Source: Candidatus Parcubacteria bacterium (GTDB lineage: Bacteria > Patescibacteriota > Minisyncoccia > Phycocordibacterales > UBA918). From it: 34,396 bases of DNA. The DNA lies in the NCBI GenBank assembly GCA_046049585.1, contig JBJORD010000028.1, positions 1 through 34,396 of the forward strand, read 5' to 3'. Both the position numbers and the translations under genes were made by a program. This document shows, piece after piece, positions 4,576 through 33,156 of this stretch (positions are counted from its first letter, which is position 1; each line of letters opens with the position of its first letter). Under the pieces are notes generated by a model. That model made no database searches, was not told where the DNA came from, and saw nothing but the letters and a program-made list of their open reading frames with translations.

Positions 4576-6090
4576 CTAAGCTAATCCTGGGAAAAAATCT
4601 CGTTCAATACAACGAGCAGGCACGCCGAGAGTGTGCAGTGACTGATACGCTGCGTCGACCATTTTTGGCGGACCAGAGATATACCATGTACGAGTAGCAT
4701 AGTCAGGAATGCGACGCGAAATGATATCAGCAGACAGGAATCCCGATTCCGCGCCAGGCGGTATTTCACCACTCCCAATGACTGGTACGAGCTCACCGAC
4801 ATTCATGAGCTCCACCTGGTACGCCAAATCAGCGGCAGTCGCCACACAATACAGTGTTTTAATATCACGTTTTTCACCTTGTAGCGTCAGAGTTGTTGCA
4901 TGACTGACAAAGGGAGTCACGCCAATGCCCCCAGCAATAAAGCCAAGCTTCACTACTGGATTTGTCGGTAAGATAAAATCACCTGAACGTTGTGACGCAA
5001 TCACTACGTCTCCTGTCTTAAGATGCACCATAGCAGACTTGTAACTACTTGCATTTTCGGGCAACTTAAAAGCCAAACGCAACTCGTTTTCTTCAGGCGC
5101 TGAAGCGATGGTGAAATAACGACGAGTACCGCGACTATCAGTGTTTTTGTGTGGGACCATCCACTCAAGGTACTGCCCAGCTTTAAATATAAATCCAGCC
5201 GGTTTTGGAAACGAAAATTCGTAGATAGAACCAGTTACTTTTTTGAGACTAGTGAGGGTTAAAATGAGTTTTTGCCGTTGCCCCCATGGCGCGAGAGCGA
5301 TATTACCGACCACCAGCGCCAACTCTGGCGACATTACAAACGAACCAAGCGGCGGCAACGAGGCCACGACGGCCACCAGTGTTGCATATACATACCGAGC
5401 ATTTTTTTGACTCGGCATCGTAAAGGGTTCAGTCAACATGAAGAATCCAAGGAATAAGAACGGGTATGAAATAAAAAAAGTGGTGAGTAATTCAGTAGTC
5501 GAACTTGGATTTTGCCAAGACAAGAGCATATAACACAAGAATCCGACAGCAATAAATACCGCTACCATATCGAGCCGCTTCACTTTTTCTGTTACCAAAA
5601 AACCGCCAATCACAATCGGAATAAACAGTAATGGGGACGCAACCCACCAGGCACCGCCGCCAAAACCAAACAAAGACCCGAGGACAAGACCAGCAGCCAC
5701 AGGATTCACCAAATGTTGCTTTTTGTACACCAGCACATATTTGCTGGCAATAGCCAGTGCAGTAATAACCGCTGAGGCAAACAAATCTTCAGGGGTAGTC
5801 GACGGGAGTAGTAACAATAGTAAAATCAACCCCGTAATAATCGAAGAAGCATGTTGAAGTGGTACTTTTGTGGCAGTGGCACAAGCAGCATTTACCAAGA
5901 GCGCGGTTACCATAATAACTACACTGCTTGCGATAAGTTCCAGTGGTATAAAACCGATATATCCACCAAACGAAGCGAGGAGCGCAACCCCATAGACAGC
6001 AAGTAAAACTTGTATGATCACCGAATACATCGGCATACGATCAAGATACAAGAGCGGTAAACGAGTAACGGTTTGCATAACAGTTTGCAT
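4576..6090 (-). CDS. Fusion protein: N-terminal RnfD/NqrB-like polytopic membrane domain plus C-terminal FNR-like FAD/NAD(P)H oxidoreductase domain
   Basis: The N-terminal ~250 aa are multi-TM and end in FFMLTEPFTMP (compare the NqrB/RnfD f.atDPvTsP motif). The C-terminal half has the FAD motif RRYFTIAS, the NAD(P)H motif GFIAGGIGVTPF and ISGPPKM. I saw no 2Fe-2S Cys cluster. Confidence 0.72.
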   Translation of the reverse strand: MQTVMQTVTRLPLLYLDRMPMYSVIIQVLLAVYGVALLASFGGYIGFIPLELIASSVVIMVTALLVNAACATATKVPLQHASSIITGLILLLLLLPSTTPEDLFASAVITALAIASKYVLVYKKQHLVNPVAAGLVLGSLFGFGGGAWWVASPLLFIPIVIGGFLVTEKVKRLDMVAVFIAVGFLCYMLLSWQNPSSTTELLTTFFISYPFLFLGFFMLTEPFTMPSQKNARYVYATLVAVVASLPPLGSFVMSPELALVVGNIALAPWGQRQKLILTLTSLKKVTGSIYEFSFPKPAGFIFKAGQYLEWMVPHKNTDSRGTRRYFTIASAPEENELRLAFKLPENASSYKSAMVHLKTGDVVIASQRSGDFILPTNPVVKLGFIAGGIGVTPFVSHATTLTLQGEKRDIKTLYCVATAADLAYQVELMNVGELVPVIGSGEIPPGAESGFLSADIISRRIPDYATRTWYISGPPKMVDAAYQSLHTLGVPARCIERDFFPGLA

Positions 6091-6171
6091 ACATCACTAG
6101 TATACTACCCTCTGTAGCTGTCTGACCAACTTCCCTGTATACTTGTATTGTTATTCGTAAAAAATATATCT

Positions 6172-6738
6172 ATGCCAGTTGTTCTTATCATAATTGGATT
6201 AGCAGTAGCGATCGGACTTGGTGGTTACTTTCTTCGTCCTGAAGAAGTGGTCACTCCGGCCACAATAACTGAATTACCTACTACGCCTGAAGCAACGGGT
6301 ACTCCAGTTGTACCAGTTGCGGACAGTAATACCTCTACACCAACCACTCCAGCTGCCACCACACCTACCGTCCCGACTGTCCCGACCGCACCAACTACAC
6401 CTACCGTCCCTGTGACACCCACCACTCCAGCCACTGCCTACGCTGATGGACCATACACCGTGAATACCAGCTACGTTGCACCAGGTAATGCGAATCACAC
6501 CATGGCAGTTACTCTCACCCTTGCTGGTGATACAGTAACCACTGCTTCAATTGTCTACGGTGGTGACTCAGTCGATCAGTCAAGCAACTACCAGAGTCGC
6601 TTCATGCGCGCCTACGAATCACAGGTCGTCGGCAAGAAGCTCGACAGTATCAAGCTTTCACGTGTCGGTGGAGCATCACTCACCAGTAACGGTTTTAATG
6701 ATGCCGTTGCCAAAGTCAAAGCAGCAGCACAAAACTAA
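6172..6738 (+). CDS. Membrane-anchored FMN-binding domain protein (RnfG/NqrC-like) with a Pro/Thr-rich linker
   Basis: It has an N-terminal TM helix (MPVVLIIIGLAVAIGLGGYFL), a ~60-aa PT-rich linker, and a C-terminal FMN_bind-like domain. That domain carries the flavinylation-type motif RVGGASLTS (Ser codon 6676-6678). The ORF-track TTG at 6148 is an alternative start. Confidence 0.72.
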   Translation: MPVVLIIIGLAVAIGLGGYFLRPEEVVTPATITELPTTPEATGTPVVPVADSNTSTPTTPAATTPTVPTVPTAPTTPTVPVTPTTPATAYADGPYTVNTSYVAPGNANHTMAVTLTLAGDTVTTASIVYGGDSVDQSSNYQSRFMRAYESQVVGKKLDSIKLSRVGGASLTSNGFNDAVAKVKAAAQN

Positions 6739-6742
6739 GTGT

Positions 6743-7618
6743 ATGGAATCAATCACCATCGTTGCCCTTGGCACACACTGGTGGATTGAACTATTTGATG
6801 AGATGAGCCCTGAGCGTCGTAATGGAATCGCTAATGCCATTACGACGCTCTTGTCGTCTATCGAAGAACGATTTTCACGGTTTCGTGAAGATTCACTAGT
6901 GAGCACACTAAATCGCGAGCGCAGTGTGGCAACTAGCGATCGGGACCTGGCAGAGCTAATCGGTATTGGCCGATCAACGTATCGCCATACCAAAAGTGCC
7001 TTTAATATTCTGATTGGTGACGCGCTCATGGCGCGTGGCTATGACAACACGTACTCACTCGTAGCCATGGAGCGTGCAGTTGAAATCGGCAACCCACTCA
7101 CTGACCTCGACTACAACGACAACACATGGCGATTATCAACAGGATTACTTGATCTCGGTGGTATTGGTAAAGGCTGGGCTATCGATAAAGTCGCAGAACT
7201 ACTCCGCAACAACGGAGTGGTCGAGTTCCTCATCAACGGTGGTGGCGATATGTATGGTACGACCGAGCATAATGAGCCGATTACCATCTACCTCGAGCAC
7301 CCGACTGAGACACAGACGTATCTCGGCACTACCACCATCATGAACCAGGGCTTTGCCGCCTCAAGCACGTACAAACGTCGCTGGCAGACAGCCGCCGGTG
7401 AGACGAGCCATATAATTGATGACACCAAGGTAATTGACGCTAGTTTCGTTATAGCAACTGACGCTGTGACAGCAGATATTTTTGCCACAACCGCCCTCCT
7501 CCTCCCTGAGGAGGACTTTGCTCCGTTAGCAATGCAAGAACGAGTTTCCTACAGTCTCTTCATTGTAGCAACAGGAGAACTCCGCACTACACCAAATTTT
7601 CCACTACATAGACTATAA
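6743..7618 (+). CDS. apbE: FAD:protein FMN transferase (ApbE family)
   Basis: Matches ApbE in ALGTHWWIELFD, EERFSRFREDSLVSTLN, DLGGIGKGWAIDKV, INGGGDMY, AASSTYKR and HIID. The ATG at 6743 lies 4 nt after the upstream stop. The ORF-track start at 6551 overlaps the previous gene and encodes non-homologous sequence. Confidence 0.85.
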   Translation: MESITIVALGTHWWIELFDEMSPERRNGIANAITTLLSSIEERFSRFREDSLVSTLNRERSVATSDRDLAELIGIGRSTYRHTKSAFNILIGDALMARGYDNTYSLVAMERAVEIGNPLTDLDYNDNTWRLSTGLLDLGGIGKGWAIDKVAELLRNNGVVEFLINGGGDMYGTTEHNEPITIYLEHPTETQTYLGTTTIMNQGFAASSTYKRRWQTAAGETSHIIDDTKVIDASFVIATDAVTADIFATTALLLPEEDFAPLAMQERVSYSLFIVATGELRTTPNFPLHRL

Positions 7619-7735
7619 ATACTACTGGTTGGAGCCATTTCTACTACTTACAGAGTAATGTGTAAGAAATACATAGATCATCCGTCTAAGGCTTGGGAGG
7701 TTGACGGAAGAAGCCAAAACCTAAAGGAGATGACG

Positions 7736-8215
7736 ATGAAACCCCTGCATGAAATATGCAAATTGATTGTGATTTGTTCACTAGGAGTATTTGCTACTCC
7801 CACAATAGCGAGCGAATCAGAGTCACTACCCAAACAAGTGCTCACCAATGAGGATGTTCAGCGTGCTTTTATTCAAGCAAAAATTGTTGAACATTTCCCA
7901 GAAGACTACTCTGTAATGCTCGCAATAGCCTATTGCGAGTCGCGATCCCGGCCTTTTATCCATTACGAGAGTGATGGTTCACTACGGGGACATGACACCG
8001 GAGCGTCAACAGCTGGTGGAACTTACCAAGTGCTCATGGGGCTACATGGCGATGCCATTCGCGAAATGGGCCTCGACATGAGCAATCTCGACGACTACTT
8101 TACATTCGTCGAGCGCTTGAAACGCGAGAATCCCAACTATGGTGCCTGGAGCGAATCGAAGAGCTGCTGGAAGAGTCGGATTGGTGACTTTGATCCAAAC
8201 GTGAATATCAGCTGA
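7736..8215 (+). CDS. Secreted lytic transglycosylase-like (SLT/lysozyme-like fold) protein
   Basis: SD AAGGAG at 7724-7729 lies 6 nt before the ATG. It has a signal-like N-terminus (MKPLHEICKLIVICSLGVFATPTIASE). Motifs AIAYCESRS ... GGTYQVLMG ... NPNYGAW resemble the ES / GLMQ / AYNaG pattern of family-1 transglycosylases. Confidence 0.5.
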   Translation: MKPLHEICKLIVICSLGVFATPTIASESESLPKQVLTNEDVQRAFIQAKIVEHFPEDYSVMLAIAYCESRSRPFIHYESDGSLRGHDTGASTAGGTYQVLMGLHGDAIREMGLDMSNLDDYFTFVERLKRENPNYGAWSESKSCWKSRIGDFDPNVNIS

Positions 8216-8337: not shown

Positions 8338-11067
8338 CTAACCTTCAGTCGTAGCTATAGTACTTGGTTCTTGACTGTTCTCAGTTACCACAGGCTCGAT
8401 ACCGACTGCAGCTTCTGCATTTTCTGTTGTGTTTAGTTCGGTTGTATTGGTATCACTAGGCTCACTTGTTTCATTAGATGTCTCTTCTGTTGCTGGCGAC
8501 GGTGCCTCAAATTGATTTTCAATAGCTTCTAAACGTTCTCGCAACAGGGCGTTTTCATTTTCCAAATCAGTCAATCTATCTTCGTGTCCGCTGATAGTCT
8601 GCCAAATTTCTTGTATGGCTTCTACTACCACAGCTACTAGGTTCTTGGTATTGAGCGACCAATAATCTCCCCCTTTTTGTACTACTTCTGGCACAACCAG
8701 ATCTACTTCTTGTGCCAAAAATCCTACCTCCGATTGGGTACCAAAACGTTCCGTATCCAACCATTCATACCGTACACCACGCAGGGCCAACACCATTTCA
8801 AGCGCACCACTAATTTCTTGCACATTTGTCTTGAGACGCTCATCTGAGGGATCACGAATGATGGCGCCATTGGCATCGACACTGAGGTTGGTAGCACCAC
8901 CAAGCAGATTCGTGGCTGTAATGGTGCCAGTGACTGTCAATTTGGTACCAGGAGTCGATGTTCCAATACCTACATTACCGTTACTGTGTATGGCAAAAAT
9001 ATCACCGTCAGTTATATTGGTAATACCAAAATAGCCCAAAGTTGAGGTGGCCAGGCTTTCGATACCAAACTCAGGAGTAGTATCAAGTAACCCCAAATTA
9101 CCAGCTGAAGTAAGACGTAATCGTTCTGCAAATACTCCTACAGAGACGGTCGAGAATCCAATAAATCCGTTGGGTGTAGTGTTATTGGTATCCTCTCTAG
9201 AGAGAGTAATCTGTGATGCTCGATCATCTGTGGTCGTAAATGAGGTGTTGTAATGTGCAATCCGTCCTGCTGTAGTAGTGATACTGTTACCGGCAGAACG
9301 CATTAGTATTTCTGTACTACGATTACTCGTACTATCAGATCCCACAAAACCATCTAATGTCAGTGAAGTGCCCGTAGTGCTCGATGCTGTGCTAAAAGCA
9401 ATAAAAGTCGCTCCACCGACACCGAGATGCTGACCATTAAATTGTAACTTGTTTGAAAAGAGTAGTTGATTAGCTGTACTTGTTGCAAATGGAATTGCAT
9501 TAGCGGTATAGACACTCGGGGTATCAGTTAGGCCTAGAAATGTTGATGCCCCACCACCACTAATTCCAAGCGAGGAAGTGGCCACCCAAGTTGGCAAACC
9601 ACTTACGACTTGCAATACTTGACCAGTAGTACCAATAGCTCGACTGGCCAATGTATCAGCTCCTGAAGCATAGAGCAGGTCGCCACTAGAATACGTAACT
9701 AATCCTGTTCCTCCCGAACTAACATCGAGTACCTCAGATAAGGTCAGTCTGGTTATTGTTGTAGTTGCTAAAGTAGAGGTACCAACAACACTAAGCCTGC
9801 CAGAATTTGTAGTACTAGCAAAAGTGGCTGTACCGGTAAAGGTTGGGCCATTTGAGAATACCGCCAATCCTCCACCTGCTGAACCAGTTTCGTCAGAGAG
9901 TAGCGCAGCTAGTTGCTCTGAAGTGGTGAATGCTGAAGACAAACCAAGTGACGAGGTGGCAATTTGTGACCACGAGTTACCAGCTCCACCAATGAGGAGT
10001 TGGTTTGTGGTGATGGTCGAGAGACCAGTCCCACCACGGGTAGCAGCGAGGGTACCAGTAGTATCGGCGATAGCGATATTGAGACTGGTGGTAGACACAC
10101 TAAGGGTGTTGCCAGTCCAGAAGAGATTGGTACCAGCGGTAATGCGAGCACTAGGGGCGTTGTAGTACGTGTTCCAGTTGGTAGATGAAGCAGTGAGGAT
10201 TCCTTCATAGCCAGCTGCGTAATCAATGGCCAAAGTACCAGTGGTTGTTATTGGTGAGCCAGAGATGGTAAAGCCTGTTGGTACAGTAGCTGCGATAGAT
10301 GACACAGTGCCACTACCGCCCCCACTGATTCCAAGCGATGAAGTCGCGACCCAGCGAGTAGAAGTACCAGTGCTCTGTAATATCATGCCAGATGCCCCAG
10401 CACTAGCTGTCGCATCTCGTAACGAGCCAGCTAAGGCGAGATCACCAGCAATAGTTAGTAACGCGATTGAGCTACTCGTACCAATACTCACTCTACCAGC
10501 TCCGTCGATATATATCCCCTCATTACCACCATCACCAGTTAACCAATTGGTGCCGAGCGCTAAATTGGAACCAATCGCACCAGAGAATATTGGCGCAACA
10601 AGTGTCGTACTAGAAACAGTAGCGGGATTTACTACAACACTCTCACGCACTTCGATAAAGTCGCTACTTGCATCATCCATAAAACTAAATAGTTGTTTTT
10701 CAAGCCGATTGATCCGCACATCACGAGACTGCTGTTGCTGCATCAATTGAACATAGCGCACCATCCCCACAAATCGACTATCGGTATATTGTTTAAAAGC
10801 ATTCCATTCATCATGACTAATACCAGTACTGTTAGATAGCTTCGTAAATTGATTGGATTGCACGAAAGGACTCACTACGGTAGTAGAAGCAACAAGTAAT
10901 TGACGCGTGATTGGTTCTGAGACTGGGACGGTATGAGTTACCACAGTATCTGCCACTACTGGGAAGGTGGTATATACCACCGAATCAGAGGACGACGAAA
11001 AAACTCCCATAACAGTGGCTAAGAGAAATGTAGATACGGTGGACAGAGAACTTACAAACCAGTCCAT
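8338..11067 (-). CDS. 909-aa N-terminally membrane-anchored tail-fibre-like surface protein with a C-terminal Peptidase_S74 intramolecular chaperone domain
   Basis: It has an N-terminal TM helix (VSTFLLATVMGVF) and a Q-rich coiled coil. A ~600-aa Gly/Ser/Thr-rich beta-repeat region follows, with the duplicated modules WVATSSLGISGGG and GGTGL...LL.G. GNVGIGTSTPGTKLTV is followed by DPSDERLKTNVQEISGALEMVLALRGVRYEW...GFLAQEV (S74 autoproteolysis signature, Ser codon 8845-8847), a coiled coil and an acidic tail. Confidence 0.8.
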   Translation of the reverse strand: MDWFVSSLSTVSTFLLATVMGVFSSSSDSVVYTTFPVVADTVVTHTVPVSEPITRQLLVASTTVVSPFVQSNQFTKLSNSTGISHDEWNAFKQYTDSRFVGMVRYVQLMQQQQSRDVRINRLEKQLFSFMDDASSDFIEVRESVVVNPATVSSTTLVAPIFSGAIGSNLALGTNWLTGDGGNEGIYIDGAGRVSIGTSSSIALLTIAGDLALAGSLRDATASAGASGMILQSTGTSTRWVATSSLGISGGGSGTVSSIAATVPTGFTISGSPITTTGTLAIDYAAGYEGILTASSTNWNTYYNAPSARITAGTNLFWTGNTLSVSTTSLNIAIADTTGTLAATRGGTGLSTITTNQLLIGGAGNSWSQIATSSLGLSSAFTTSEQLAALLSDETGSAGGGLAVFSNGPTFTGTATFASTTNSGRLSVVGTSTLATTTITRLTLSEVLDVSSGGTGLVTYSSGDLLYASGADTLASRAIGTTGQVLQVVSGLPTWVATSSLGISGGGASTFLGLTDTPSVYTANAIPFATSTANQLLFSNKLQFNGQHLGVGGATFIAFSTASSTTGTSLTLDGFVGSDSTSNRSTEILMRSAGNSITTTAGRIAHYNTSFTTTDDRASQITLSREDTNNTTPNGFIGFSTVSVGVFAERLRLTSAGNLGLLDTTPEFGIESLATSTLGYFGITNITDGDIFAIHSNGNVGIGTSTPGTKLTVTGTITATNLLGGATNLSVDANGAIIRDPSDERLKTNVQEISGALEMVLALRGVRYEWLDTERFGTQSEVGFLAQEVDLVVPEVVQKGGDYWSLNTKNLVAVVVEAIQEIWQTISGHEDRLTDLENENALLRERLEAIENQFEAPSPATEETSNETSEPSDTNTTELNTTENAEAAVGIEPVVTENSQEPSTIATTEG

Positions 11068-11183
11068 TATAACTATTATACCTGTTTGTTACGGTTTATT
11101 TTGCTATTACACACATGAATCAACCCATACTACATCAAGACAGGCTTAGGTGTATCAAAAGAATATAGTATACTGCGAGCAAT

Positions 11184-11735
11184 ATGGCACTACCCACAAA
11201 AACTGAGGCCAGCATACTTTTACAAACCTACACCACAGACAGTTATTTACTCCATCATGCAGCTATGGTTGGTGCTGCTACTGCTTCGTATGCTGCTGTC
11301 TTTGGTGAAGACGAGCACTTGTATTGGCTCACTGGCTACTTACACGACATTGACTATGAGCAGCATCCGACCGAACATCCTGGACCATCACTAGCTTGGT
11401 TTCGAGAGTGGGGGTATCCAGAAGATTTAATCCATGCCGTTGAGGCTCATGCCAATGGTTTTAATGGATACACTATCAAACCCGCAAGTAACCTCGCCCG
11501 TGCGCTGATTGCCTGCGACGAGATCTGCGGTATCTTTTATGCCTACCAAAAACTAAATCCTATCCTGTACAGCGAGATGAAAGTGTCATCAATCGTAAAG
11601 CGCCTCAAAGAAGAAAAGTTTGCACCTGGTATCAGTCGTACCCATATCTACGAGGCAGTAGAAGCCCTGGGCGTCACTCTCGAGTCACACATCGAGCGAC
11701 TCATCACCGCCTTAACTACCTTAGATACAAAATGA
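11184..11735 (+). CDS. HD-superfamily hydrolase (COG2316-like)
   Basis: Contains LLHHAAMVGA...FGEDEHLYWLTGYLHDIDYEQHPTEH...AVEAHA, with His/Asp metal ligands in the HD arrangement. Confidence 0.78.
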   Translation: MALPTKTEASILLQTYTTDSYLLHHAAMVGAATASYAAVFGEDEHLYWLTGYLHDIDYEQHPTEHPGPSLAWFREWGYPEDLIHAVEAHANGFNGYTIKPASNLARALIACDEICGIFYAYQKLNPILYSEMKVSSIVKRLKEEKFAPGISRTHIYEAVEALGVTLESHIERLITALTTLDTK

Positions 11736-11739
11736 TTCT

Positions 11740-12076: not shown

Positions 12077-12110
12077 AGAAAAACACTTTCATATATGAAA
12101 GTGTTTTTCT
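12077..12110. repeat. 34-bp perfect palindrome AGAAAAACACTTTCATA|TATGAAAGTGTTTTTCT (copy 1 of the ACTTTCATATATGAAAGT family), positioned like a bidirectional terminator
   Basis: Read directly from the sequence. It lies between the convergent ATL stop (12057) and the AlkC-like stop (12109-12111) and has A5/T5 flanks. Confidence 0.85.
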
Positions 12111-13236
12111 AACCCGAGCGAAGCGTAAAATCAGTTTTGCACACTACAACGCCGTTAATTTGTACGGCAACTGTATGCGTACCTGGATACAGTGTAAATG
12201 TAGTGGCATCGGCTTTGAGTCGGTGGTTTTTGATGAGCTCGAGTGACTCACCTCGCTTGAGCGAAACTATTTTCCACTTAAACACCTTAGGTGCAGTTGT
12301 ACCGTTTTTCTTTACAAAGTGGATGACGTAGTCGATGAGGAGATTTGTGTCATCAGTCGCAGTGATTGTGGTAGCAAATGACAACACGTCTCCAGCCTGT
12401 ATCTCTGAACTTGCGATAGTAAAACTATCTACCGTATATGTCGCACTGTTATAGCCAAGCAGGGTGAGTGTATCGCTATGTCCCTGTTTGATCAGAGTAC
12501 GTAATGCATGTTTCGTCATCCAAGCGAGCTCATGCGTATTTTGCTTCCCCAGCTTTTGCCACTGACGTAAAGTATCTATCACCACAGCCGGCTCTTTTTT
12601 CGCGATGTCATTGAGATGGTTTGCAATCGAGCGGGTCACATAACGAGTCGCATCTGCATGGAGGATATTGAGTAATGGGAGTGTATCAGCGCTCGAGAGT
12701 GGTACTCGCCCGCTCCAAGGCAATAAGGGCCTTGTCCCCTCACTCACTAGCCGCCTGACATGGTAGTTCTCATCACGAACCCACTGCTTCATAACGCGTA
12801 ATGTTTCTTTGGGAAACGCCCGCAGATAATACCGAATCGCGTCCTCCATAGAAAAACGCTGAGTTAGCTCACGGAGGGTTTCGAGTGATAGCGCGAGACG
12901 CTCCTTAGTACAACCATGCTTGGCCACATACTCACCAAAAGGCGCCAAAATAAATTCACCAAAATCATCATCAGTCTTTGTGGGATCTAGTGGTGGCGGC
13001 AAGGCGCGCACTATCACTGCTACCGCTTTTTTATAATCCGTTGGTAGATGTCGCGAAAGTACGTCTGCAATCCAGCGAATGCGGGCTTTGAGTTCGAGCG
13101 TGAGAAGTGTATGCATCACTTCCCGCTCAAATTCTTTAGCATCAAAGTTTTTGTCAGCTGCCGCGAGGAGTGACGCCAGGTACGCGACCCGCTCTTTATT
13201 AAACAAATGATCTTTGAGTGAAAAGCGTTCTGTCAC
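12109..13236 (-). CDS. alkC: DNA alkylation repair glycosylase, AlkC-like (HEAT-like repeats plus a C-terminal beta-rich Ig-like domain)
   Basis: Contains HVRRLVSEGTRPLLPWSGRV...YVTRSIANHLNDIAKKEPAVV, typical of the DNA-alkylation-repair HEAT-like repeat family. The ~100-aa beta-rich C-terminus is consistent with the long AlkC form. The start is GTG. Confidence 0.72.
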   Translation of the reverse strand: MTERFSLKDHLFNKERVAYLASLLAAADKNFDAKEFEREVMHTLLTLELKARIRWIADVLSRHLPTDYKKAVAVIVRALPPPLDPTKTDDDFGEFILAPFGEYVAKHGCTKERLALSLETLRELTQRFSMEDAIRYYLRAFPKETLRVMKQWVRDENYHVRRLVSEGTRPLLPWSGRVPLSSADTLPLLNILHADATRYVTRSIANHLNDIAKKEPAVVIDTLRQWQKLGKQNTHELAWMTKHALRTLIKQGHSDTLTLLGYNSATYTVDSFTIASSEIQAGDVLSFATTITATDDTNLLIDYVIHFVKKNGTTAPKVFKWKIVSLKRGESLELIKNHRLKADATTFTLYPGTHTVAVQINGVVVCKTDFTLRSG

Positions 13237-13468
13237 CAGAATAGCGTATCACAATAGGATAGGTTTGACGTGTCCTATAAATTGTGTTATCTTTGTCTTA
13301 CCTTAAGATTCTCGTGTAGTGCTCTTCGGGTGACAGGCGAATAGTGGCGACCTCATTTGTATTGGTCCCTGCCACATCGATTGGATTTATATACTGCACA
13401 CAAAAAACAGCAGAATCGTATCTTCCCTATTTTTGGCTTTGATACCTGTTGTCACTAACAACAAACAA

Positions 13469-22764: not shown

Positions 22765-23340
22765 ATGCGCTACATCGTGTTTGACTTAGAAACCCAGAAT
22801 ACCTTTGAAGAAGTGGGTTCAAGCGACCCAACGGCACTTGATATATCGGTCGCCACTTTTTATGACAGTGCTACCGATAAGTATACTACCCTAACTATTG
22901 ATGAACTTGACCAAGCCTGGCCGATTATCGAGCAAGCTGACGCCCTGGTTGGTTACAACAGTAACCACTTTGATATCCCTCTCCTCAACAAGTACTATCC
23001 CGGTGATCTTACCCATATCAAAAGCATCGATCTCCTTGAAAGTATTCGATCATCACTAGGTCGACGACTACGTCTTGATAGTGTGGCTGAGGCAACAGTA
23101 GGAGCCAAAAAATCTGCCCACGGTCTTCAGGCTGTCCGCTGGTGGAAAGAAGGCAAAATCAATGAGATCAAAAAATACTGCGAGCAAGACGTAAAGGTCA
23201 CCAAAAAGGTATTTGATTACGCTATGACATATGGTCACGTAAAATTCAAAGATGGTAGCCGCAAACGCGAAATCCCCCTCGATATCTCAACCTGGATGAT
23301 CAAAGAAGACGCCGCGATGACCCACTCTTTACTTTTTTAA
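22765..23340 (+). CDS. DEDDy-type 3'-5' exonuclease / RNase H-like fold protein
   Basis: It has Exo motifs IVFDLETQ, GYNSNHFDIPLL and YCEQDVKVT. TGgTATACT lies 9 nt upstream of the ATG at 22765. Confidence 0.68.
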   Translation: MRYIVFDLETQNTFEEVGSSDPTALDISVATFYDSATDKYTTLTIDELDQAWPIIEQADALVGYNSNHFDIPLLNKYYPGDLTHIKSIDLLESIRSSLGRRLRLDSVAEATVGAKKSAHGLQAVRWWKEGKINEIKKYCEQDVKVTKKVFDYAMTYGHVKFKDGSRKREIPLDISTWMIKEDAAMTHSLLF

Positions 23341-24334: not shown

Positions 24335-24417
24335 ATGTGAGAGTATAGCACAATCGTTGTCTGTCTTGCGACATGATATACTAATTCTATTGTAAATAGT
24401 AATGATTGTTTAATACC

Positions 24418-25211: not shown

Positions 25212-28211
25212 TTATGTGCGCAGTCGGTCTTGCAGTAAAGTGGCCAGTGACGCATATTCACTATCAGCAGCCAAGATTTCGTCAAACCAAAAATCTCCCC
25301 GTAGTAGCATTTCTAGGGTTTCTAGTATCTCTGCTTTTACCCCAGCTTGATTCTCGCTATCGCTTTCAAATAACTCTTCAACAATTTTGCCATTTGTATG
25401 TGGCTCAATAAACGACAACACCCCGTATGGACAATGGTAACGATTATCCTCATGGAGTGATAATAAGAGTGCGTAAAATGACAGCTGGCGCCGATAGTTA
25501 CCATCACTGGTAGCCGTCTCACCCATAATGTCTTTACGTGATTTAGTCTTACCTGTTTTGTAATCTACTACTCGGGAAACACTCCCATTGATCGCAAAAT
25601 CAAGCCGGTCGAGATTACCCTGCAACAATAATTCAGGCAACAGAGTCAAATTGGTCTGTATTCGTGCCGTACTAGAAAACTCTTCCTTTGTCATTGCTGG
25701 TAACGTCTCTGTGAGATGTGGTAAATATGCTGCCAGCGATGCTTGACCTTTTTGTAGGAGGTCACTCATCTCAACTGGTGAAAGTGGTAGCTTTTCCAAA
25801 CGCTGCACCAGTAGTCGATTAGCGTCATTGAAGCTCAGAATCTTGGCTGTAGCGGTATGGGTTTTGGTTACCTGTTCGAGTACTCCATGCATGGCTGTTC
25901 CAAAATGTAGGGCTGGGGTCTTGGGTTCAGGTAGACGAAATACATTTCGATACACAAAATGCCAAGGGTTCTTGAGCGCGTTGTTAAGTGAGGTGGCAGA
26001 AAAACCGCGCCTGGTCAGTGCACTTTGCACATTAGCAGTCAACTCTGCTCGCGCCTGGTTGGTACTGATCAATTGAGACAGTAATGTAGGACCATGCAGC
26101 ACTTCGTCATCAATTAGTGTGGGTACGAGTGACAGGTAAGATAGTAACGGGGTTGGTGACAAGGCTTTGCCAGAGGTGTTTGTGTGCGCATAAGACAGGG
26201 ACAGATTGGTTTTGGCACGAGTTAGTGCTACATACAACAAGCGCCGTTCGTCTTCATTCGCTTCAAGCTGTAATTCAGTAGTTTTTAGTAGTGGCAGCTT
26301 AAAGTAATCTGGGCGTTTGCTTTTACCCCAGGCTTGTTCGGTCAAATGTGGTACATACACTGAATGAAATTCGAGCCCTTTTGATTTATGTGCCGTAATT
26401 ACTTGAACCCCAGTACCACTACCCATATAGGGTGCTGAGAGTGGTAATCGGTACGCCACTCGTGCCGTAAAGAGGTGTACCACTTCAGACAAAGTGCGCA
26501 CCTCACCAGCTGCTACTGCTCCCTCAATTTCGTCATAAACGCGTCTTATGATTCGCCCACCTTCAATCGGAAAACGACCAATCACATAGGTAAGCAAACC
26601 ACTATCTAAGAACAAATCAGCTACCACGTGTTGCGCTGACGATACCAAAGCAGACGCTCGCGCTTTTTCTAATACTGTCATCACTCGGGTGCACGTCGCC
26701 TCATCAACCAACACAAGACCTTCTCTCGCCTCTTTGCTCGATAACAATTGCACTAAGTTATTCTTGTACGACTGGGCTGCTAAAAGCGTAGTCACATCGG
26801 TTAAAGGAATACCCCAATACGGAGCCTGTATCACCTTGGCTAAGGTAGCAATATTGGTTGGCTGCTCAGCCGCTTGGAGTAAATCAATAGCTGCCAAAAA
26901 TAACGGGTGATCAAGAATATCGCCGTCAGCACTAGCATCCACCAAGACGCCAGATCGTCGGAGCGCGTCAGCCAAAACTGCCACTTCCCGATTTGACCGT
27001 ACTATCACGGCTATTTCGTTTGGTGGTACTCCAGCCGCTAATTCGGCTTGTACGGCCGTCACTAGCGCTGCCTCCTCGACACTCTCATGACTATATACCT
27101 GCAAGGTCATCTTTTCTGGATCTGTAGAAGCAGCCTGAAGTGGTGTTCGATAATCGACCAGTGGTCCCTCAGTGACTTTGATCAAGTCATGCGCCTGATC
27201 CAGGATACCTTGTGTAGAACGATAGTTATCATCCAAGGTAATGACATTGGTAGCCGTGTAAGCTTGTTCAAAATGAATAAAATTCTCGAGTGAGGCTCCC
27301 TGAAAACGATAGATAGCCTGCTTTTCATCCCCCACCACAAATAAGTTTGGGGCGGTATGAAAATTTGTTAGGAGCTCAAGAATTTCATTTTGTGCACCAT
27401 TTACGTCTTGGTGTTCATCAGCCAGAATGTACTGAAAACGTTCCTGTAGATCGAAACGAACATTTTCACAATCACGCAACACTTTTACCGTCTCTAGAAT
27501 CATGTCATCAAAGTCGTAGCGTCGGTTGGTAGACATAAGCGCGTCATAACGCTGGTATACCGCATGAAGCACTAATTGTTTTTCGATTAATTCAGCGGCC
27601 TTTTTGTACTCGCTACGCTCCTTACCTTTGTGAGCACCTTTCTCATGGTATTGAGGAATGTGTAACAAGGTCTCTTGTGCGTCACTAATTATTTCAGATA
27701 GGCGATGTGGTGTCACATTCTCCTGCTTCATAGCACTGATAGCACTCGTGATCGCTTGAATATAAAAATCAGGAGCGTTGACTGGCCGCAACAGAGACAG
27801 GGCTGGATCTTCAAGAATTGATTCCAGGTATTGAATCCGCTCAATGTCAGTAATAGCTTGGCCACCTACGATTCGCTCGTACGCAGTTGGGTACTCACGG
27901 ATAAGCTGCTCAGCCAAGGCATGAAATGTATAGATGGGCACTTGGTACGCGCGGGGCCCGATAAAGGTCTGTAGTCGTTCGCGCATCGCACGTGCTCCTG
28001 ATTTGGTAAAGGTCAGGGCCAAAATACTTTCAGGCGCTGTGTCAGTCAGTCGGAGTATATTGGCAATGCGGAGAGTCAAAATCTGGGTCTTACCAGTACC
28101 TGGACCAGCAATCACCATGACTGGGCCTTCAATCGCATCAACAGCCGATTTTTGCTTTTTGTTTAGACGATTATAAGCGCTAAAGTAGTTTTGCTCGTAC
28201 ACCGAAGTCAT
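25212..28211 (-). CDS. UvrD/PcrA-type superfamily-1 helicase fused to a C-terminal PD-(D/E)XK (RecB/Cas4-like) nuclease domain
   Basis: The N-terminus has AGPGTGKTQ (Walker A), ILADEHQDVN and VGDEKQAIYRFQGA. The C-terminus has VVDYKTGK...YRRQLSFYALLL, a nuclease motif. The ATG at 28211 is preferred because TGgTATACT lies 8 nt upstream. Confidence 0.85.
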   Translation of the reverse strand: MTSVYEQNYFSAYNRLNKKQKSAVDAIEGPVMVIAGPGTGKTQILTLRIANILRLTDTAPESILALTFTKSGARAMRERLQTFIGPRAYQVPIYTFHALAEQLIREYPTAYERIVGGQAITDIERIQYLESILEDPALSLLRPVNAPDFYIQAITSAISAMKQENVTPHRLSEIISDAQETLLHIPQYHEKGAHKGKERSEYKKAAELIEKQLVLHAVYQRYDALMSTNRRYDFDDMILETVKVLRDCENVRFDLQERFQYILADEHQDVNGAQNEILELLTNFHTAPNLFVVGDEKQAIYRFQGASLENFIHFEQAYTATNVITLDDNYRSTQGILDQAHDLIKVTEGPLVDYRTPLQAASTDPEKMTLQVYSHESVEEAALVTAVQAELAAGVPPNEIAVIVRSNREVAVLADALRRSGVLVDASADGDILDHPLFLAAIDLLQAAEQPTNIATLAKVIQAPYWGIPLTDVTTLLAAQSYKNNLVQLLSSKEAREGLVLVDEATCTRVMTVLEKARASALVSSAQHVVADLFLDSGLLTYVIGRFPIEGGRIIRRVYDEIEGAVAAGEVRTLSEVVHLFTARVAYRLPLSAPYMGSGTGVQVITAHKSKGLEFHSVYVPHLTEQAWGKSKRPDYFKLPLLKTTELQLEANEDERRLLYVALTRAKTNLSLSYAHTNTSGKALSPTPLLSYLSLVPTLIDDEVLHGPTLLSQLISTNQARAELTANVQSALTRRGFSATSLNNALKNPWHFVYRNVFRLPEPKTPALHFGTAMHGVLEQVTKTHTATAKILSFNDANRLLVQRLEKLPLSPVEMSDLLQKGQASLAAYLPHLTETLPAMTKEEFSSTARIQTNLTLLPELLLQGNLDRLDFAINGSVSRVVDYKTGKTKSRKDIMGETATSDGNYRRQLSFYALLLSLHEDNRYHCPYGVLSFIEPHTNGKIVEELFESDSENQAGVKAEILETLEMLLRGDFWFDEILAADSEYASLATLLQDRLRT

Positions 28212-28249
28212 ATAAGCCCAGTATACCATTAGGCAGAATCACCTGCGAC

Positions 28250-29023
28250 TTAGGCTGTATCATCCAGGTAGCACTCATACAATGCTGCAAGTGTCATCGG
28301 CCAGACGAGTAGTAACACCAACTCTTCTAGTGGCACAACCTGACCAAAAAGGGTGACTGTAGCCATGTATTCGGTCGTAAACGCAAATACCCGTACACCA
28401 TTAGCAAGGGCTACTAATTCCATGAGGACAGATAGCGGCCACACCGCAACCGCAAACCAAAATACTTTTTCCAAAATCTTGCCCGACGCACCCCTCGCCA
28501 TAAATAAGAGTGTCACTATCAGGACCAAAAACAGCACTGCCAAAATCCACAAAAACGAAAAACTGACTAGTTCAACAGAGAATAAGTAGAAAAAACTGAC
28601 CACCAGAGCACCCAAAGTCACCATTAGTGGTAACAAGATTTTTTGGCGTCGGCTTTGTATAACGCCATCATCAAAGAAAAATTCGTAGAGGACCAAAAAA
28701 TACAAACTATGTACAAAGGCAAATAAGACCGATTCAAAAGAGACACCCAGGAGTCGGGTACTTGATTGAACAATCGAGTACCACGCGCCCGTTGTATGAG
28801 CAACCGCATCAATTACTACAAATACCACTGCCACCAAGGCTGTTGCAACCAACAAACGACCAAGCTGCAGTGGCCGTTCATACATCAACACAGCCAGCGG
28901 TACGCCGCAGAGCAAAAACAAAACAAAAGCCGTTGGAAGCGCTACCCACAAAGCAAGCCCAGCCACCACGACACTATAGAGTGTCAATGTAAGCAAATGC
29001 CACATTTGGAGACGAGGAACCAT
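28250..29023 (-). CDS. Polytopic membrane protein, possibly of the lycopene-cyclase-domain family
   Basis: About 7 TM helices in two similar halves. The second half carries VPLEELVLLLVW (compare the PxEE motif of CrtYc/Yd domains) and the first has SFESVLFAF. The start is moved to 29023 because codons 29024-29077 are the translation of a 17-bp hairpin. Confidence 0.5.
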   Translation of the reverse strand: MVPRLQMWHLLTLTLYSVVVAGLALWVALPTAFVLFLLCGVPLAVLMYERPLQLGRLLVATALVAVVFVVIDAVAHTTGAWYSIVQSSTRLLGVSFESVLFAFVHSLYFLVLYEFFFDDGVIQSRRQKILLPLMVTLGALVVSFFYLFSVELVSFSFLWILAVLFLVLIVTLLFMARGASGKILEKVFWFAVAVWPLSVLMELVALANGVRVFAFTTEYMATVTLFGQVVPLEELVLLLVWPMTLAALYECYLDDTA

Positions 29024-29035
29024 ATGACTTATATT

Positions 29036-29074
29036 GTACCAAGCACCGACCCATTTTGGGTCGGTGCTTGGTAC
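29036..29074 (-). terminator. 17-bp perfect GC-rich hairpin downstream of rpoD
   Basis: GTACCAAGCACCGACCC-ATTTT-GGGTCGGTGCTTGGTAC begins 16 nt beyond the rpoD stop. No clear U-tract follows on the minus strand. Confidence 0.5.
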
Positions 29075-29089: not shown

Positions 29090-30526
29090 CTAGTATGACT
29101 TCAGTCGTCGTGCTTTATCGTGACTACGGATTTTTTCGAGCGCTTTGGCTTCGATCTGGCGAATACGTTCACGGGTGACGCCGAATTCCTTCCCTACTTC
29201 TTCGAGTGTGTGATACGTTCCATCAAGGAGTCCGTGGCGCATCTCAAGAATTTTTCGTTCCTTCTCTGACAGGGTGTCGAGAATTTCGGTGATCTGATCA
29301 GTCAAAATACTGTGTGACACTTCTTGGTCTGGTGAGGTGATTTTGTCATCAGCAATAAAATCTGAGAGTCGTGAATGATCATCTTCATCACCAATCGGGA
29401 GCTCGAGTGAAATAGTATCCTGACTAATCTTTTCGATTTGATAAATCTTGTCTACCTCTACCCCCATTTCGGTAGCAATCTCTTCTGGCATCGGGTCACG
29501 ACCTAAGTCTTGTGAAAGTCGACGAGACACTTGTTTGTACTTGGCCATCGTTTCTACCATGTGTACTGGAATACGAATAGTACGTGACTGATCGGCCAAA
29601 GCTCGGGTAATAGCCTGGCGAATCCACCAGGTTGCGTAGGTAGAAAACTTGAAGCCCTTAGTGAAGTCGAATTTGTCTACAGCCTTAAAGAGACCAAGGT
29701 TACCCTCTTGAATCAAGTCAAGGAGAGTGAGATCAGGACTACGTCCCACGTACTTCTTGGCAATCGATACCACCAGTCGAAGGTTGGCTCGAGCCAACAG
29801 ATTACGTGCTTCTTCGTCACCGTCGACAATACGCTTGGCGAGTACCCGTTCTTCATGAGCATTCAATAGTGGATACTGACCAATTTCACGAAAGTACATT
29901 TGGATAGAGTCATAACTACTATCATTGCGCTTGAAAGCGTTCTTTTGTGCTAGTAGTTCTTCAGCTGGATCAGCACCGAGCATCCCGCCACTTTTGAGTA
30001 CATCAACACCAGCGACCGAAAAGCGCTCATATAACTCATCGAGGAACATGATGTCTTTTTCGATTTCAGGAAAAGCACGTAAGAGCTCGTCGTAGGTAAC
30101 ATAACCGCGCTCACGACCTGACTTCATGAGTTCAGCGGCTTTTAACTCAAGAATCTTTTCTGATTTTGTCAGTGGCTTTGGTGGCAATGCCTTAACTACC
30201 GGAGCGGCTTTTACCACTACTGGTGCAGCGGCTTTTTTGGTAACCACCTTACCAACGACAGCTTTTTTTACAGGAGCTACTTTTGCTACAACTTTTTTTG
30301 CTGAGACTGTCTTTTTAGTGACTGGTTTTTTGGACACCACTTTTTTCACAGCTTTCGCTGCTTTTTTTGCGACTTTTTTGGCAACTGGCTTCACGACTTT
30401 TTTTTGAGCACTGACCTTTTTGATGGTCTTTTTTGCTACAGATTTTTGAACTTTGGTAACGGTTTTGGCCGTTTTTTTAACTGCTTTTTTTGCGACTTTT
30501 TTGGCGGTTGCCATATGTGAAGACAA
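29090..30526 (-). CDS. rpoD: RNA polymerase primary sigma factor with a Lys/Ala/Val-rich N-terminal extension
   Basis: It has region 2 ([18 protein letters not shown]...[17 protein letters not shown]), region 3, and region 4 ([24 protein letters not shown]). The ATG at 30514 is an alternative start. Confidence 0.92.
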
Positions 30527-30558
30527 CTATACAGAAAAATACAGAATTGTCCAGTCCC

Positions 30559-32298
30559 CTACTCAAAAAGCACTTCTGTGTAGGCTGGTACCTGTCTGGC
30601 TTTGGTGAGTTCTACAATTCGAGCAAGACGAGCGACATCCGCTTCGCCACCATCATTTTGTATGGCGGCACGCTCTTTTTGCTGGGCATCGGTTAGATAT
30701 GACTCACGGTATTGATTGAGCTTATGCAAAAGCTCACTTTGCCGCACCTTGGCAGACATATGTTCAAAGGCAGATTCGAGTGAAAAGGTCAGTTCCGAAA
30801 TGATTCGCTCATCCATTTCAGCGACAATATCAGCGAGTGGCTGGTTACGGACACTAGTTAGTACACGCTCAATTACCAGAGCTTCTGCTGGTGACACTAC
30901 CCGCATACACGCCACCAAATAGGCACCTGCCTTGGCATGCCGATCAAGTGATCCTGACGCCCGTGGAGCAGCGATGGGCGTCTCTTCAGTTTGCTCAGAC
31001 GGCAAAGCCGCGTCCCGTTTTTCGAGCCGTACCACTTCCATATGCACCGCTTCTGTCGAGGTACCAAGGGCACTCGCGATTACCCCTTCAAAATGATCCC
31101 GATCGATGTGATTGGGTATGAGCGTCACAAATGGCAGCACCTCTTCACGTACTCGCAATTTGTAGGCACGGTCATCAGCAATTCCTCGACGTAAATGTTG
31201 TAGTAGATATTCAATCACGTGAATAGAATTCCCTACCGTCACTTTAAACGCTTTTGCGTCTGCCAATACCAAATCAGCCGGATCTGCTCCGTCTGGCAGC
31301 ACCGCCACCTTCACATCCATCCCGCGCCGCAACATGAGATCAGCCGCTTTCTTCATCGCATTAATACCAGCTTTATCGGCATCAAGCGCCAGCACAACGT
31401 TCTTAGAAAGTCTCTCGAGGAGTTGCACATGATGGAGTGTCAGCGCCGTTCCTGATACTGCCACAGTAGTTGTGTATCCTGCCTGGTGACTCATCACTAC
31501 GTCAAATTGCCCTTCAACTAGAAGCCAAAATGGTAACTGCCGAATATTGTGCTTGGCAAAATCGTAGCCATAGAGTACATCTGATTTATGAAAGAGATCA
31601 GTCTCAGGACTATTCACATACTTCGGAGACTTTTCGTCTGGATGCAATATACGTCCCGAAAAAGCTACCACCTTACCACTCGCGTCACGTAAAGGAAACA
31701 TAATCCGATCCCGAAATAGGTCAAACGGTTCCTTCCCAACATCGGCTGGCTTGGCGAGTCCAGCTTTGAGAATTATGTCATCGGTGTACCCGATACTATT
31801 GAGATGTGACTTGAGCTCTCGCCAGCCACCAGTCGGTGGACCAGGTGCATACCCTATCCGCCATTTAGCGATTGTTTCTTTACTCACTCCCCGCTTCTCG
31901 AGATAGGCCACTGCTTCAGTACAGTACGGGAGCTTTTCCGCAAAGAACACTGTCGCGGCTTCGGTTACCGCAATGAGTTGCTCACGGAGTCCCCGTTTCT
32001 CAGGCGCTTCAGGTACCAGTTCTACCCCTGCCTTTTGGGCCAGGGTCTTTAGTGCCTCCTTAAATTCCACCCCATCAATCGCTTGCACAAATGAAAAAAT
32101 ATCTCCCCCGACCCCACAACCAAAACAGTGATACGTCCCCCGCTCTGGTGACACATGGAAGCTCGGCGACTTTTCATTATGAAACGGACATCGCCCCTTA
32201 AAGTGCTTGCCAGCCCGATGGAGTTCGACCGTCTCACCCACCACATCCAAGATGTTCAGTCGGTCTTTGATTTGCTGTACTGCGTCACCCGATGCCAT
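30559..32298 (-). CDS. dnaG: DNA primase
   Basis: It has the zinc ribbon CPFHNEKSPSFHV...YHCFGCG and the TOPRIM region (LVEGQFDVV...LALDADKAG). It lies upstream of rpoD, the classical arrangement. Confidence 0.92.
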   Translation of the reverse strand: MASGDAVQQIKDRLNILDVVGETVELHRAGKHFKGRCPFHNEKSPSFHVSPERGTYHCFGCGVGGDIFSFVQAIDGVEFKEALKTLAQKAGVELVPEAPEKRGLREQLIAVTEAATVFFAEKLPYCTEAVAYLEKRGVSKETIAKWRIGYAPGPPTGGWRELKSHLNSIGYTDDIILKAGLAKPADVGKEPFDLFRDRIMFPLRDASGKVVAFSGRILHPDEKSPKYVNSPETDLFHKSDVLYGYDFAKHNIRQLPFWLLVEGQFDVVMSHQAGYTTTVAVSGTALTLHHVQLLERLSKNVVLALDADKAGINAMKKAADLMLRRGMDVKVAVLPDGADPADLVLADAKAFKVTVGNSIHVIEYLLQHLRRGIADDRAYKLRVREEVLPFVTLIPNHIDRDHFEGVIASALGTSTEAVHMEVVRLEKRDAALPSEQTEETPIAAPRASGSLDRHAKAGAYLVACMRVVSPAEALVIERVLTSVRNQPLADIVAEMDERIISELTFSLESAFEHMSAKVRQSELLHKLNQYRESYLTDAQQKERAAIQNDGGEADVARLARIVELTKARQVPAYTEVLFE

Positions 32299-32619: not shown

Positions 32620-32644
32620 CCGCCCCGTACCCGCACCCATGCAG

Positions 32645-32681
32645 AACCCGCACCGGTCACACGGTGCGGGTTTTGCTTTTT
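32645..32681 (+). terminator. Rho-independent terminator
   Basis: AACCCGCACCG-GTCACA-CGGTGCGGGTT followed by TTGCTTTTT. Confidence 0.8.
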
Positions 32682-32706
32682 ATCTCCCATCTTCACCTCT
32701 TGTTCA

Positions 32707-32732
32707 AAATACTTTCATATATGATAGTATTT
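32707..32732. promoter_or_regulatory. 26-bp palindrome AAATACTTTCATA|TATGATAGTATTT (copy 3, 1 mismatch); candidate operator overlapping the promoter of the TrpR-like gene
   Basis: It ends 4 nt before the ATG at 32737 and contains the -10-like TAGTAT (32725-32730). Confidence 0.6.
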
Positions 32733-32736
32733 ATAC

Positions 32737-33156
32737 ATGAAGCGCAAACCATCGGATCTTTCACTTGAGGATCAGGCCTATACACGCAAGTTATTATTCG
32801 AAGCGGCTAAAGTAGCCAAGGACACGAAGCAGTTGGAAAAATTCCTTGATGGACTCTTAACTCCAAGCGAACAAATAATGCTTGGCAGACGTATATGGGT
32901 CAGTCGTTTGATTCTTGAAAACAAACGATATGATGAGATTAGTGAACGTCTACTGATTGGACATAACACCATTGCCAAAGTCGAGCTATGGCTACGTGGC
33001 CTCCTCCCCGATTACGGCAAACATATAGAGCGTGAAGTAAAACGTACAACGCATGAACGGCGTAAACAGATCGCGAAAGCTAACCCATTTGGTCTAACTG
33101 CTCTGAAAATGAAGTACCCACTTCACTTCCTTCTATTTCCCTGGCCAAAAAATTAA
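32737..33156 (+). CDS. TrpR-like / YerC-YecD family helix-turn-helix protein
   Basis: FLDGLLTPSEQIMLGRRIWVSRLILENKRYDEISERLLIGHNTIAKV resembles the Trp-repressor-fold family (f..dl.Tp.E...la.R......L..g.sy.eI......s.aTI.Rv). Confidence 0.68.
   Translation: MKRKPSDLSLEDQAYTRKLLFEAAKVAKDTKQLEKFLDGLLTPSEQIMLGRRIWVSRLILENKRYDEISERLLIGHNTIAKVELWLRGLLPDYGKHIEREVKRTTHERRKQIAKANPFGLTALKMKYPLHFLLFPWPKN

Follow-up and report, generated by a model that had tools for sequence, protein, structure and literature searches.

The window is the complete stretch of 34,396 nucleotides (nt) of contig JBJORD010000028.1 (C28) in assembly GCA_046049585.1. The subject of this report is a recurrent arrangement of its gene starts, in which a promoter-like -10 hexamer lies 6-9 nt upstream of the start codon, so that the messenger RNA would begin at or near this codon (leaderless-type start). 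The contig belongs to a metagenome-assembled genome (MAG) of 716,544 bp in 76 contigs, with a completeness of 88.5% and a GC content of ~46%. Its HisRS protein is closest (55-82% identity) to proteins of MAGs that carry the labels Candidatus Kaiserbacteria, Paceibacteria, Parcubacteria or Patescibacteria, and the organism is an ultra-small member of the Patescibacteria (Candidate Phyla Radiation, CPR), class Paceibacteria ("Kaiserbacteria"/Parcubacteria), with a genome of 0.7 Mb. Rfam and tRNA scans of the window returned no match.

The initial annotation had listed 15 starts of this type and had described them as free of a purine-rich Shine-Dalgarno (SD) sequence. The 50 nt upstream of each start were re-read, and all 15 combinations of box, spacer and start codon were exact. 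The -35 boxes in TTGACG-N17-TACAAT (16506) and TTGCAA-N17-TAGAAT (21434) and the TGn extensions were all present as described, and GGAG, GAGG and AGGAG were absent 3-20 nt from any of the 15 starts. The list was correct as far as it went, with a 16th site overlooked before a prmC-like gene (GTG 19669, TGaTATGGT N6). It had also been claimed that only two genes of the window are clearly SD-led; this held for the genes starting at 7736 and 15208, and a weaker third was found at 18669 (AGGAG N10). The 15 starts belong to ordinary housekeeping genes, among them truB, bL33, class I fba, hisS, uppP and those of a UvrD-nuclease and an ABC ATPase. The sites are given below together with the two SD-led genes and the sigma factor gene; N and a number denote the spacer, and G007 is a genome of the same genus.

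6088-6104 (-): TATACT-N8-ATG, RnfD/NqrB-like::FNR-like fusion gene (4576-6090)
7724-7738 (+): for contrast, SD-led start AAGGAG-N6-ATG (7736), gene of a small signal-peptide protein
11065-11080 (-): TATAAT-N7-ATG, 909-aa fibre-like protein with S74 chaperone domain (8338-11067)
11169-11186 (+): TATACT-N9-ATG, HD-domain hydrolase (11184-11735); G007 orthologue TATAAT N7
13234-13248 (-): TGaTACGCT-N6-GTG, DNA_alkylation-like gene (12109-13236)
15009-15025 (+): TATACT-N8-ATG, ORF of a 26-aa hydrophobic peptide (15023-15103); found in G007 with 58% identity
15196-15210 (+): for contrast, SD-led start GGAGG-N7-ATG (15208), gene of a 113-aa signal-peptide protein
15620-15634 (+): TGcTACAAT-N6-ATG, truB (15632-16453); identical TGcTACAAT N6 in G007
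16468-16508 (+): TTGACG-N17-TGcTACAAT-N9-ATG, ribosomal protein bL33 (16506-16685)
17828-17845 (-): TGgTATGCT-N9-ATG, class I fructose-bisphosphate aldolase fba (16805-17830)
19553-19567 (-): TGcTATACT-N6-ATG, ABC ATPase (18818-19555); orthologues keep TGnTATACT at N6-8
19654-19671 (+): TGaTATGGT-N6-GTG, prmC-like methyltransferase (19669-20511), the additional 16th leaderless-type site
21398-21436 (+): TTGCAA-N17-TAGAAT-N7-ATG, hisS (21434-22696)
22750-22767 (+): TGgTATACT-N9-ATG, RNase H-fold 3'-5' exonuclease (22765-23340)
24332-24347 (-): TGcTATACT-N7-ATG, uppP/bacA (23525-24334)
28209-28225 (-): TGgTATACT-N8-ATG, UvrD-PD-(D/E)XK helicase-nuclease (25212-28211); G007 TGgTATACT N7
29021-29038 (-): TGgTACAAT-N9-ATG, membrane protein (28250-29023)
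29090-30526 (-): rpoD (sigma-70, regions 1.1-4), which presumably recognises the extended -10 promoters described here
32725-32739 (+): TAGTAT-N6-ATG, TrpR/YerC-like regulator (32737-33156); G007 TAGAAT N6

Genome-wide statistics were calculated for the 652 long open reading frames (ORFs) of the MAG, with the first ATG of each taken as its start, and the internal ATGs of the same genome served as the control unless stated otherwise. The distribution of distances between box and start showed a clear enrichment at spacers of 6-9 nt, where a TANNNT hexamer was found before 40% of the first ATGs versus 5.6% of the internal ones. The matches at spacers 6, 7, 8 and 9 numbered 104, 53, 62 and 54, over a background of ~18 per position. 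With the pattern TAYNNT, which cannot be a stop codon, the corresponding values were 28.7% and 3.8% (odds ratio 10.3, p = 7e-90), so that the motif is enriched 7-10-fold at first versus internal ATGs and has a sharp positional peak. In the region itself 15 of ~28 gene starts (our own count) carry a box, compared with the internal rate of 5.6% (binomial p = 3e-12). The initial annotation had called the arrangement pervasive, a word that stands for a share of ~40% genome-wide and about half in the region, and not for every gene. As the first-ATG heuristic misses four of the 15 window sites (19555, 21434, 28211, 29023) and the GTG at 13236 is beyond its scope, the leaderless fraction is probably understated.

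A count centred on the promoter, which involves no choice of start sites, gave the same picture. The MAG holds 191 TGnTAYAMT motifs. For 91 of them (48%) an ATG at a spacer of 6, 7, 8, 9 or 10 nt (36, 15, 18, 16 and 6 cases) is the first codon of an ORF of at least 80 codons, with none at spacers 3-5 and ~5% at spacers 25-30. The codons that follow the extended -10 motif are almost exclusively ATG (ATG 85 : GTG 1 : TTG 5). The GTG start at 13236 is for this reason the weakest of the 15 cases; its G007 orthologue has an ATG at the same position and a TANNNT match at spacer 6. The strict motif gave a signal in the first 100 codons of 38% of the ORFs of at least 300 codons, versus 4% in the control zone. 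When the same pipeline was applied to 100 kb of Escherichia coli K-12 as a negative control, 1% of the genes had boxes and 38% had SD sequences. For the annotated starts of the Deinococcus radiodurans megaplasmid, used as a positive control, the values were 15% at spacers 5-9 (11/78 at 6-9) and 37% SD, and the modal spacer was 6, the same as here. In the window alone TAYAMT-N6-9-ATG occurred 11 times versus 5.3 +/- 2.2 in Markov simulations, and the loose TANNNT-N6-9-ATG was not enriched (73 versus 81 expected in the same kind of simulation); the significance is therefore tied to the gene starts.

Alignment of the box-bearing genes on the hexamer gave the consensus T-n-T-G-g-TATA(a/c)T with T1, A2 and T6 invariant, the commonest hexamers being TATACT, TATAAT and TACAAT. 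A TGn stands beside 43% of the boxes versus 10% of TANNNT control boxes inside genes, and a -35 match of at least 4/6 was found for 24% versus 12% of these control boxes. The base at position -1 is a pyrimidine in 81-94% of the genes in every spacer class. A distance of 6 nt from the -10 box to +1 is canonical. TGn, the -35 TTG and the hard minimum of 6 nt are all properties of sigma-70 promoters, and because of these properties the motif is a predicted sigma-70 extended -10 promoter and not a ribosome-binding site.

The same anatomy is conserved among relatives. For hisS, a TANAMT box was located within 20 nt of the homologous ATG in 75 of the 79 orthologous loci from different MAGs (66 with TACAAT), and in 66 of the 75 a TTG stood 16-18 nt before the box. 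At these 75 loci the spacers were 6 (21 loci), 7 (8), 8 (7), 9 (14), 10 (12), 11 (5) and 12-20 nt (8), none being shorter than 6. TGnTAnnnT is likewise conserved directly before the homologous ATG of fba, the ABC ATPase, bL33, truB and the helicase-nuclease. Eight of nine fba orthologues shown have a box at N9-10 (seven with TGnTACACT; G007 has TATACT N10), and in five genomes the bL33 orthologues retain both TTGAC and, at N9-10, a -10 box. A look-up of bL33 for transcript-like contigs matched two JGI DNA contigs only, and the same look-up had no entry for the FBA protein.

Eight of the 15 genes have another possible start codon in frame further upstream. The initial annotation had used the geometry to prefer the shorter starts of fba, the helicase-nuclease, the membrane protein and the ABC ATPase, a choice borne out by the N-termini of orthologues. 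In tblastn comparisons the alignment opens with residue 1 of the short form for the exonuclease, the helicase-nuclease, fba, hisS and the ABC ATPase; for the membrane protein and G007 it opens with residue 6, yet projects onto an ATG at the homologous position. An orthologue ATG was thus present at the homologous position in all six of these cases, and the picking of starts by geometry is therefore supported. Two metagenome contigs carry JGI gene calls for these proteins, the first with an FBA of 341 aa and a TruB of 290 aa, the other with a TruB of 273 aa.

SD sequences are at background level in this genome. SD tetramers precede 8% of the starts versus 5% of the controls, and 2% of the starts of tightly packed genes. 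The anti-SD sequence of the 16S rRNA is lost in the congeners: all eight 16S rRNA genes found for the same genus end with GGATTAATTCCAAT where E. coli has GGATCACCTCCTTA, which corresponds to the tail GGAUUAAUUCCAAU in place of the canonical GGAUCACCUCCUUA and to AUUCC instead of the CCUCC of other bacteria. In two further families of the order the tails are GGAATTCTTCCGAA and GGAATCATTCAATT, also without CCTCC. Among the tails collected across the phylum CCTCC was kept in 25 of the 26 read first and in three later ones (28/29), and the sole exception, G054, belongs to the same class as the MAG. The 3' tail of the 16S rRNA varies among families of the order (GGAUUAAUUCCAAU, GGAAUUCUUCCGAA, GGAAUCAUUCAAUU) and is AGACUAUUUCAUUU in another order (16S of relatives and of G054), variability that is expected of a tail freed from selection. 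The ribosome is also altered in its proteins. No match to uL1 (PF00687) was obtained in the MAG and 20 relatives (21/21 of the order; 17 relatives at least 90% complete), and the protein was present in 14 of 14 controls. A homologue of S1 is present in a short four-domain form (~360-430 aa across the order) that scores below the cut-off of the rpsA model. A replacement SD matching the altered 16S tail was considered and dropped, as GGAAT, GGAA, TAATT, AATTA and TTAAT had no clear positional peak before starts.

Position -1 carries a second signal. A T is found there in 60% of the genes versus 27% of the internal ATGs, and the value is 27% in both the E. coli and the Deinococcus controls. Gaps of -4 and of +1 to +10 nt predominate between the genes, so tight coupling is frequent, and among 123 genes with gaps of -4 to 15 nt, most of them without a box, position -1 is T in 79% and C in 14%. 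Examples of T(-1) in the window are the starts at 11740, 4563 and 32298. T(-1) was dropped as the sole proof of a transcription start at A, since it is equally strong at coupled, mostly box-less genes and is not raised in Deinococcus. Hollerer and Jeschek (2023, PMC10018350) reported that U(-1) favours initiation, through its pairing with A37 in the initiator tRNA. Because of this report, and because the base is part of the RNA at coupled genes, T(-1) is probably a translation signal of the lineage and may act through U(-1):A37 pairing with the initiator tRNA. The only tRNA-Met found carries A37.

The arrangement reported by the initial annotation is thus confirmed as an observation, and its leaderless interpretation is well supported by sequence statistics (genome-wide geometry, the 6-nt limit, near-exclusive ATG), promoter anatomy (TGn and -35), comparative conservation and the state of the ribosome (absence of SD and loss of the anti-SD in congeners). 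We consider an SD-free, leaderless-type organisation by means of extended -10 promoters at the ATG to be very probably the best explanation. The housekeeping sigma-70 holoenzyme would read extended -10 promoters, with a weak or optional -35 element, whose hexamer ends 6-9 nt before the ATG, and transcription would start at the A of the start codon or 1-3 nt from it. The resulting messenger RNA would have neither a 5' leader nor an SD site, and its 5'-terminal AUG would itself be the initiation signal, by analogy with the 70S/IF2-dependent leaderless initiation of other bacteria; the near-exclusive use of ATG after the extended -10 motif fits this role of the AUG. Some 35-40% of the genes in the genome, and about half in the region, would have such starts, many with their own promoter inside the 3' end of the upstream gene. 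Among the other genes, some would follow closely on the stop codon before them (gaps of -4 to ~15 nt) and be coupled to it, and some would have short leaders that lack an SD; SD pairing would be essentially unused. Because ~40% of the genes have a -10 box 6-9 nt before the ATG without a ribosome-binding site, most messages probably start at the start codon.

Several observations weigh against this reading. The genome-wide starts come from the first-ATG heuristic and not from a trained gene finder. The MAG itself holds no 16S gene (no match to RF00177), and we infer the loss of its anti-SD from the congeners. A clean positional peak of GGAGG/AGGAG at 5-9 nt was found at ~29 genes (4%). Boxes occur at 29% of the tightly packed genes (52/178, upstream gap below 25 nt) versus 42-59% elsewhere and are thus not restricted to the first genes of operons. 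These boxes sit inside the 3' end of the upstream gene, which suggests gene-by-gene promoters instead of long operons. The frequency of T(-1) at coupled, mostly box-less genes indicates that this base is not purely an element of the transcription start. Spacers of 10-17 nt in some orthologues, among them those of the exonuclease at 22765 (12-17 nt), imply short leaders. The boxes at packed genes, the frequency of T(-1) and the longer spacers would also be accommodated if the promoters were real and the transcripts not strictly leaderless, with leaders of 1-5 nt and/or read-through polycistrons, initiation by another SD-independent route (U(-1)AUG, binding of S1 or AU-rich sequences, termination-reinitiation) and a 5'-terminal AUG that is incidental. 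Spacers of 7-11 nt are indeed common, the four-domain S1 homologue exists, and the boxes of dnaG (TATACT N16), a DsbA-like gene (TGaTATACT N23-35) and rpoD lie 11-35 nt upstream of the ATG without an SD. However, the modal spacer is exactly the canonical 6 nt with an abrupt onset, ATG is nearly exclusive, as expected if the 5'-terminal codon is the signal, and a pyrimidine at -1 followed by A at +1 is found in all spacer classes. We regard this alternative as improbable.

It is less probable still that TAnnnT acts at the RNA level, as a non-SD ribosome-binding site or AU-rich enhancer in longer leaders like those of Bacteroidota (group B of GeneMarkS-2). Both SD and anti-SD are missing, so that a replacement signal is needed, and the motif also precedes operon-internal genes; but TGn and the conserved -35 TTG at 16-18 nt are specific to promoters, the consensus resembles TATAAT with invariant T1, A2 and T6, and the spacers have a hard lower limit of 6 nt. 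TATACT and TACAAT are moreover not complementary to the congener tail GGAUUAAUUCCAAU, and GGAAU, the complement of this tail, has no positional peak. A chance or compositional effect of AT-rich intergenic DNA, combined with starts chosen to fit the motif, has in its favour that the loose motif is not over-represented in the window and that the initial annotation had picked some starts by their geometry. It is effectively refuted by the enrichment and sharp peak at first versus internal ATGs, by the promoter-centred count, by orthologue alignments that validate the starts independently and by the 1% of boxes in E. coli.

Other genomes were surveyed with the same pipeline in small samples (70-100 genes each), box figures referring to TANNNT at spacers 6-9.

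G007, same genus: 16S without CCUCC; box 31% versus 4.5% in control; SD at background
G028, same order: 16S without CCUCC; box 28% versus 3.7%; SD at background
G019, same order: box 31% versus 4.8%; SD at background
G021, same order: box 34% versus 4.5%; SD 12% versus 6.8%
G120, same class: box 26% versus 6.6%; SD 12% versus 6.9%
G054, same class, other order: 16S without CCUCC; box 11% versus 5.3%; SD at background
G033, G045, G051, G052, G056, G062 and G067, same phylum: CCUCC present; box 13-29% versus 0.7-7.9%; SD 6-43%

Leaderless-type promoters seem to be common in the phylum, with this genome at the high, SD-free end. In G054, which has neither SD nor -10 boxes near the ATG yet T(-1) in 61% of the genes, the start signal is something else.

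The organisation resembles that of group C in the GeneMarkS-2 classification, the Actinobacteria (Mycobacterium, Corynebacterium, Streptomyces) and Deinococcus-Thermus being rich in leaderless transcripts (Lomsadze et al., 2018, PMC6028130). In 25-50% of group C genes a -10-type TANNNT stands ~6-9 nt before a start codon at the 5' end of the messenger RNA, a share that compares with the 40% found here. However, group C keeps the anti-SD and uses SD sequences for leadered or operon-internal genes, as in the Deinococcus sample, whereas here SD is at background and the congener 16S rRNA lacks CCUCC. The starts are nearly ATG-only, the promoter is mainly of the extended -10 type, and U(-1) is more than twice as frequent as in Deinococcus or E. 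coli. The lineage also differs, since the phyla named for group C in the relevant text of PMC6028130 are Actinobacteria, Deinococcus-Thermus, Proteobacteria and Firmicutes, and the present one belongs to the CPR/Paceibacteria. With the Bacteroidota-type group B the genome shares very few SD sites and an AT-rich signal near the start codon; in that group the motif is an RNA-level one in the leadered messages of all genes, unlike the TGn, -35 and hard 6-nt minimum seen here, and the share of boxes at packed genes is not what the same motif before all genes would give.

The loss of the rRNA anti-SD and of ribosomal proteins in Parcubacteria has been described by Tsurumaki et al. (2022, RNA 28:1041, PMC9297842), according to whom the anti-SD is missing in about half of the Parcubacteria, so that no SD helix can form; the passages of that paper on this topic do not mention the mode of initiation, promoter-start geometry or leaderless messenger RNA. 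As in the Parcubacteria treated there, the congener 16S rRNA lacks CCUCCU and uL1 is absent from all 21 genomes including this MAG. Because of the 16S tails of its congeners and the absence of uL1, the organism is placed in the uL1-less, anti-SD-less subgroup that these passages describe, the 16S part by way of the congeners. In the literature on leaderless messenger RNA, SD/anti-SD or transcription starts in CPR groups, no report of a leaderless gene organisation in the phylum was found, and the present case adds a lineage to a gene organisation that is already known.

Most messages of haloarchaea, Sulfolobus (group D) and mammalian mitochondria start at the AUG, and the mitochondrial small-subunit rRNA lacks an anti-SD on a ribosome that is likewise reduced. 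Those systems rely on TATA/BRE elements at ~-27 or on processed polycistrons, unlike the sigma-70 -10 box found here. Leaderless messages on a reduced ribosome that lacks uL1 and the anti-SD would parallel mitochondria and some archaea, and this co-occurrence bears on the question whether leaderless initiation is ancestral or has arisen repeatedly as genomes were reduced. We propose tentatively, at somewhat less than even confidence, that the uL1-less, anti-SD-less Paceibacteria have abandoned SD pairing as their general means of choosing starts, in favour of one extended -10 promoter at the ATG for each gene, with leaderless initiation, stop-start coupling and U(-1)AUG, where pairing with A37 is possible. 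Since leaderless-type promoters are also common (13-29% of genes) in CPR classes that keep CCUCC, the leaderless habit may have preceded and permitted the loss of the anti-SD. If so, the clade would offer a natural model, within the bacteria, of how a reduced ribosome translates without SD pairing.

For start-codon selection in anti-SD-less Parcubacteria the arrangement offers a likely and testable answer. Gene callers that use the longest ORF or are trained on SD would mis-extend many CPR proteins, given the competing in-frame start codons upstream of eight of the 15 sites; the -10/ATG geometry could provide a start-site rule for thousands of Paceibacteria MAGs. That the promoters are near the extended -10 consensus of E. 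coli matters for the heterologous expression of CPR genes and for the prediction of their regulation.

The SD-led genes form a group of their own. They are shorter, have a GC content of 49% versus 44.6%, and 10% versus 36% have a homologue in the G007 sample (p = 0.004); they look like accessory, possibly acquired genes. Pairing between this SD and the congener 16S tail would be limited to 4 bp (GGAG:UUCC, one of the pairs being G-U). Contamination was ruled out as their origin, as they lie on many contigs and adjoin leaderless-type genes, including in this window. Many of them encode signal-peptide-like N-termini.

Three genes of the window differ from the leaderless type by the distance of their boxes. 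The start of rpoD is probably the ATG at 30514 with TATAGT N11, rather than the TTG at 30526 of the longest frame, and dnaG, the DsbA-like gene and probably rpoD are predicted to have short SD-less leaders. dnaG and rpoD adjoin on the same strand (29090-32298, -), as in the classical macromolecular-synthesis operon. The 26-codon ORF at 15023-15103 (+) encodes MKVIFIAIALFVALAILNAYFGGTP, probably a genuine small membrane protein; its counterpart in G007 also has a box.

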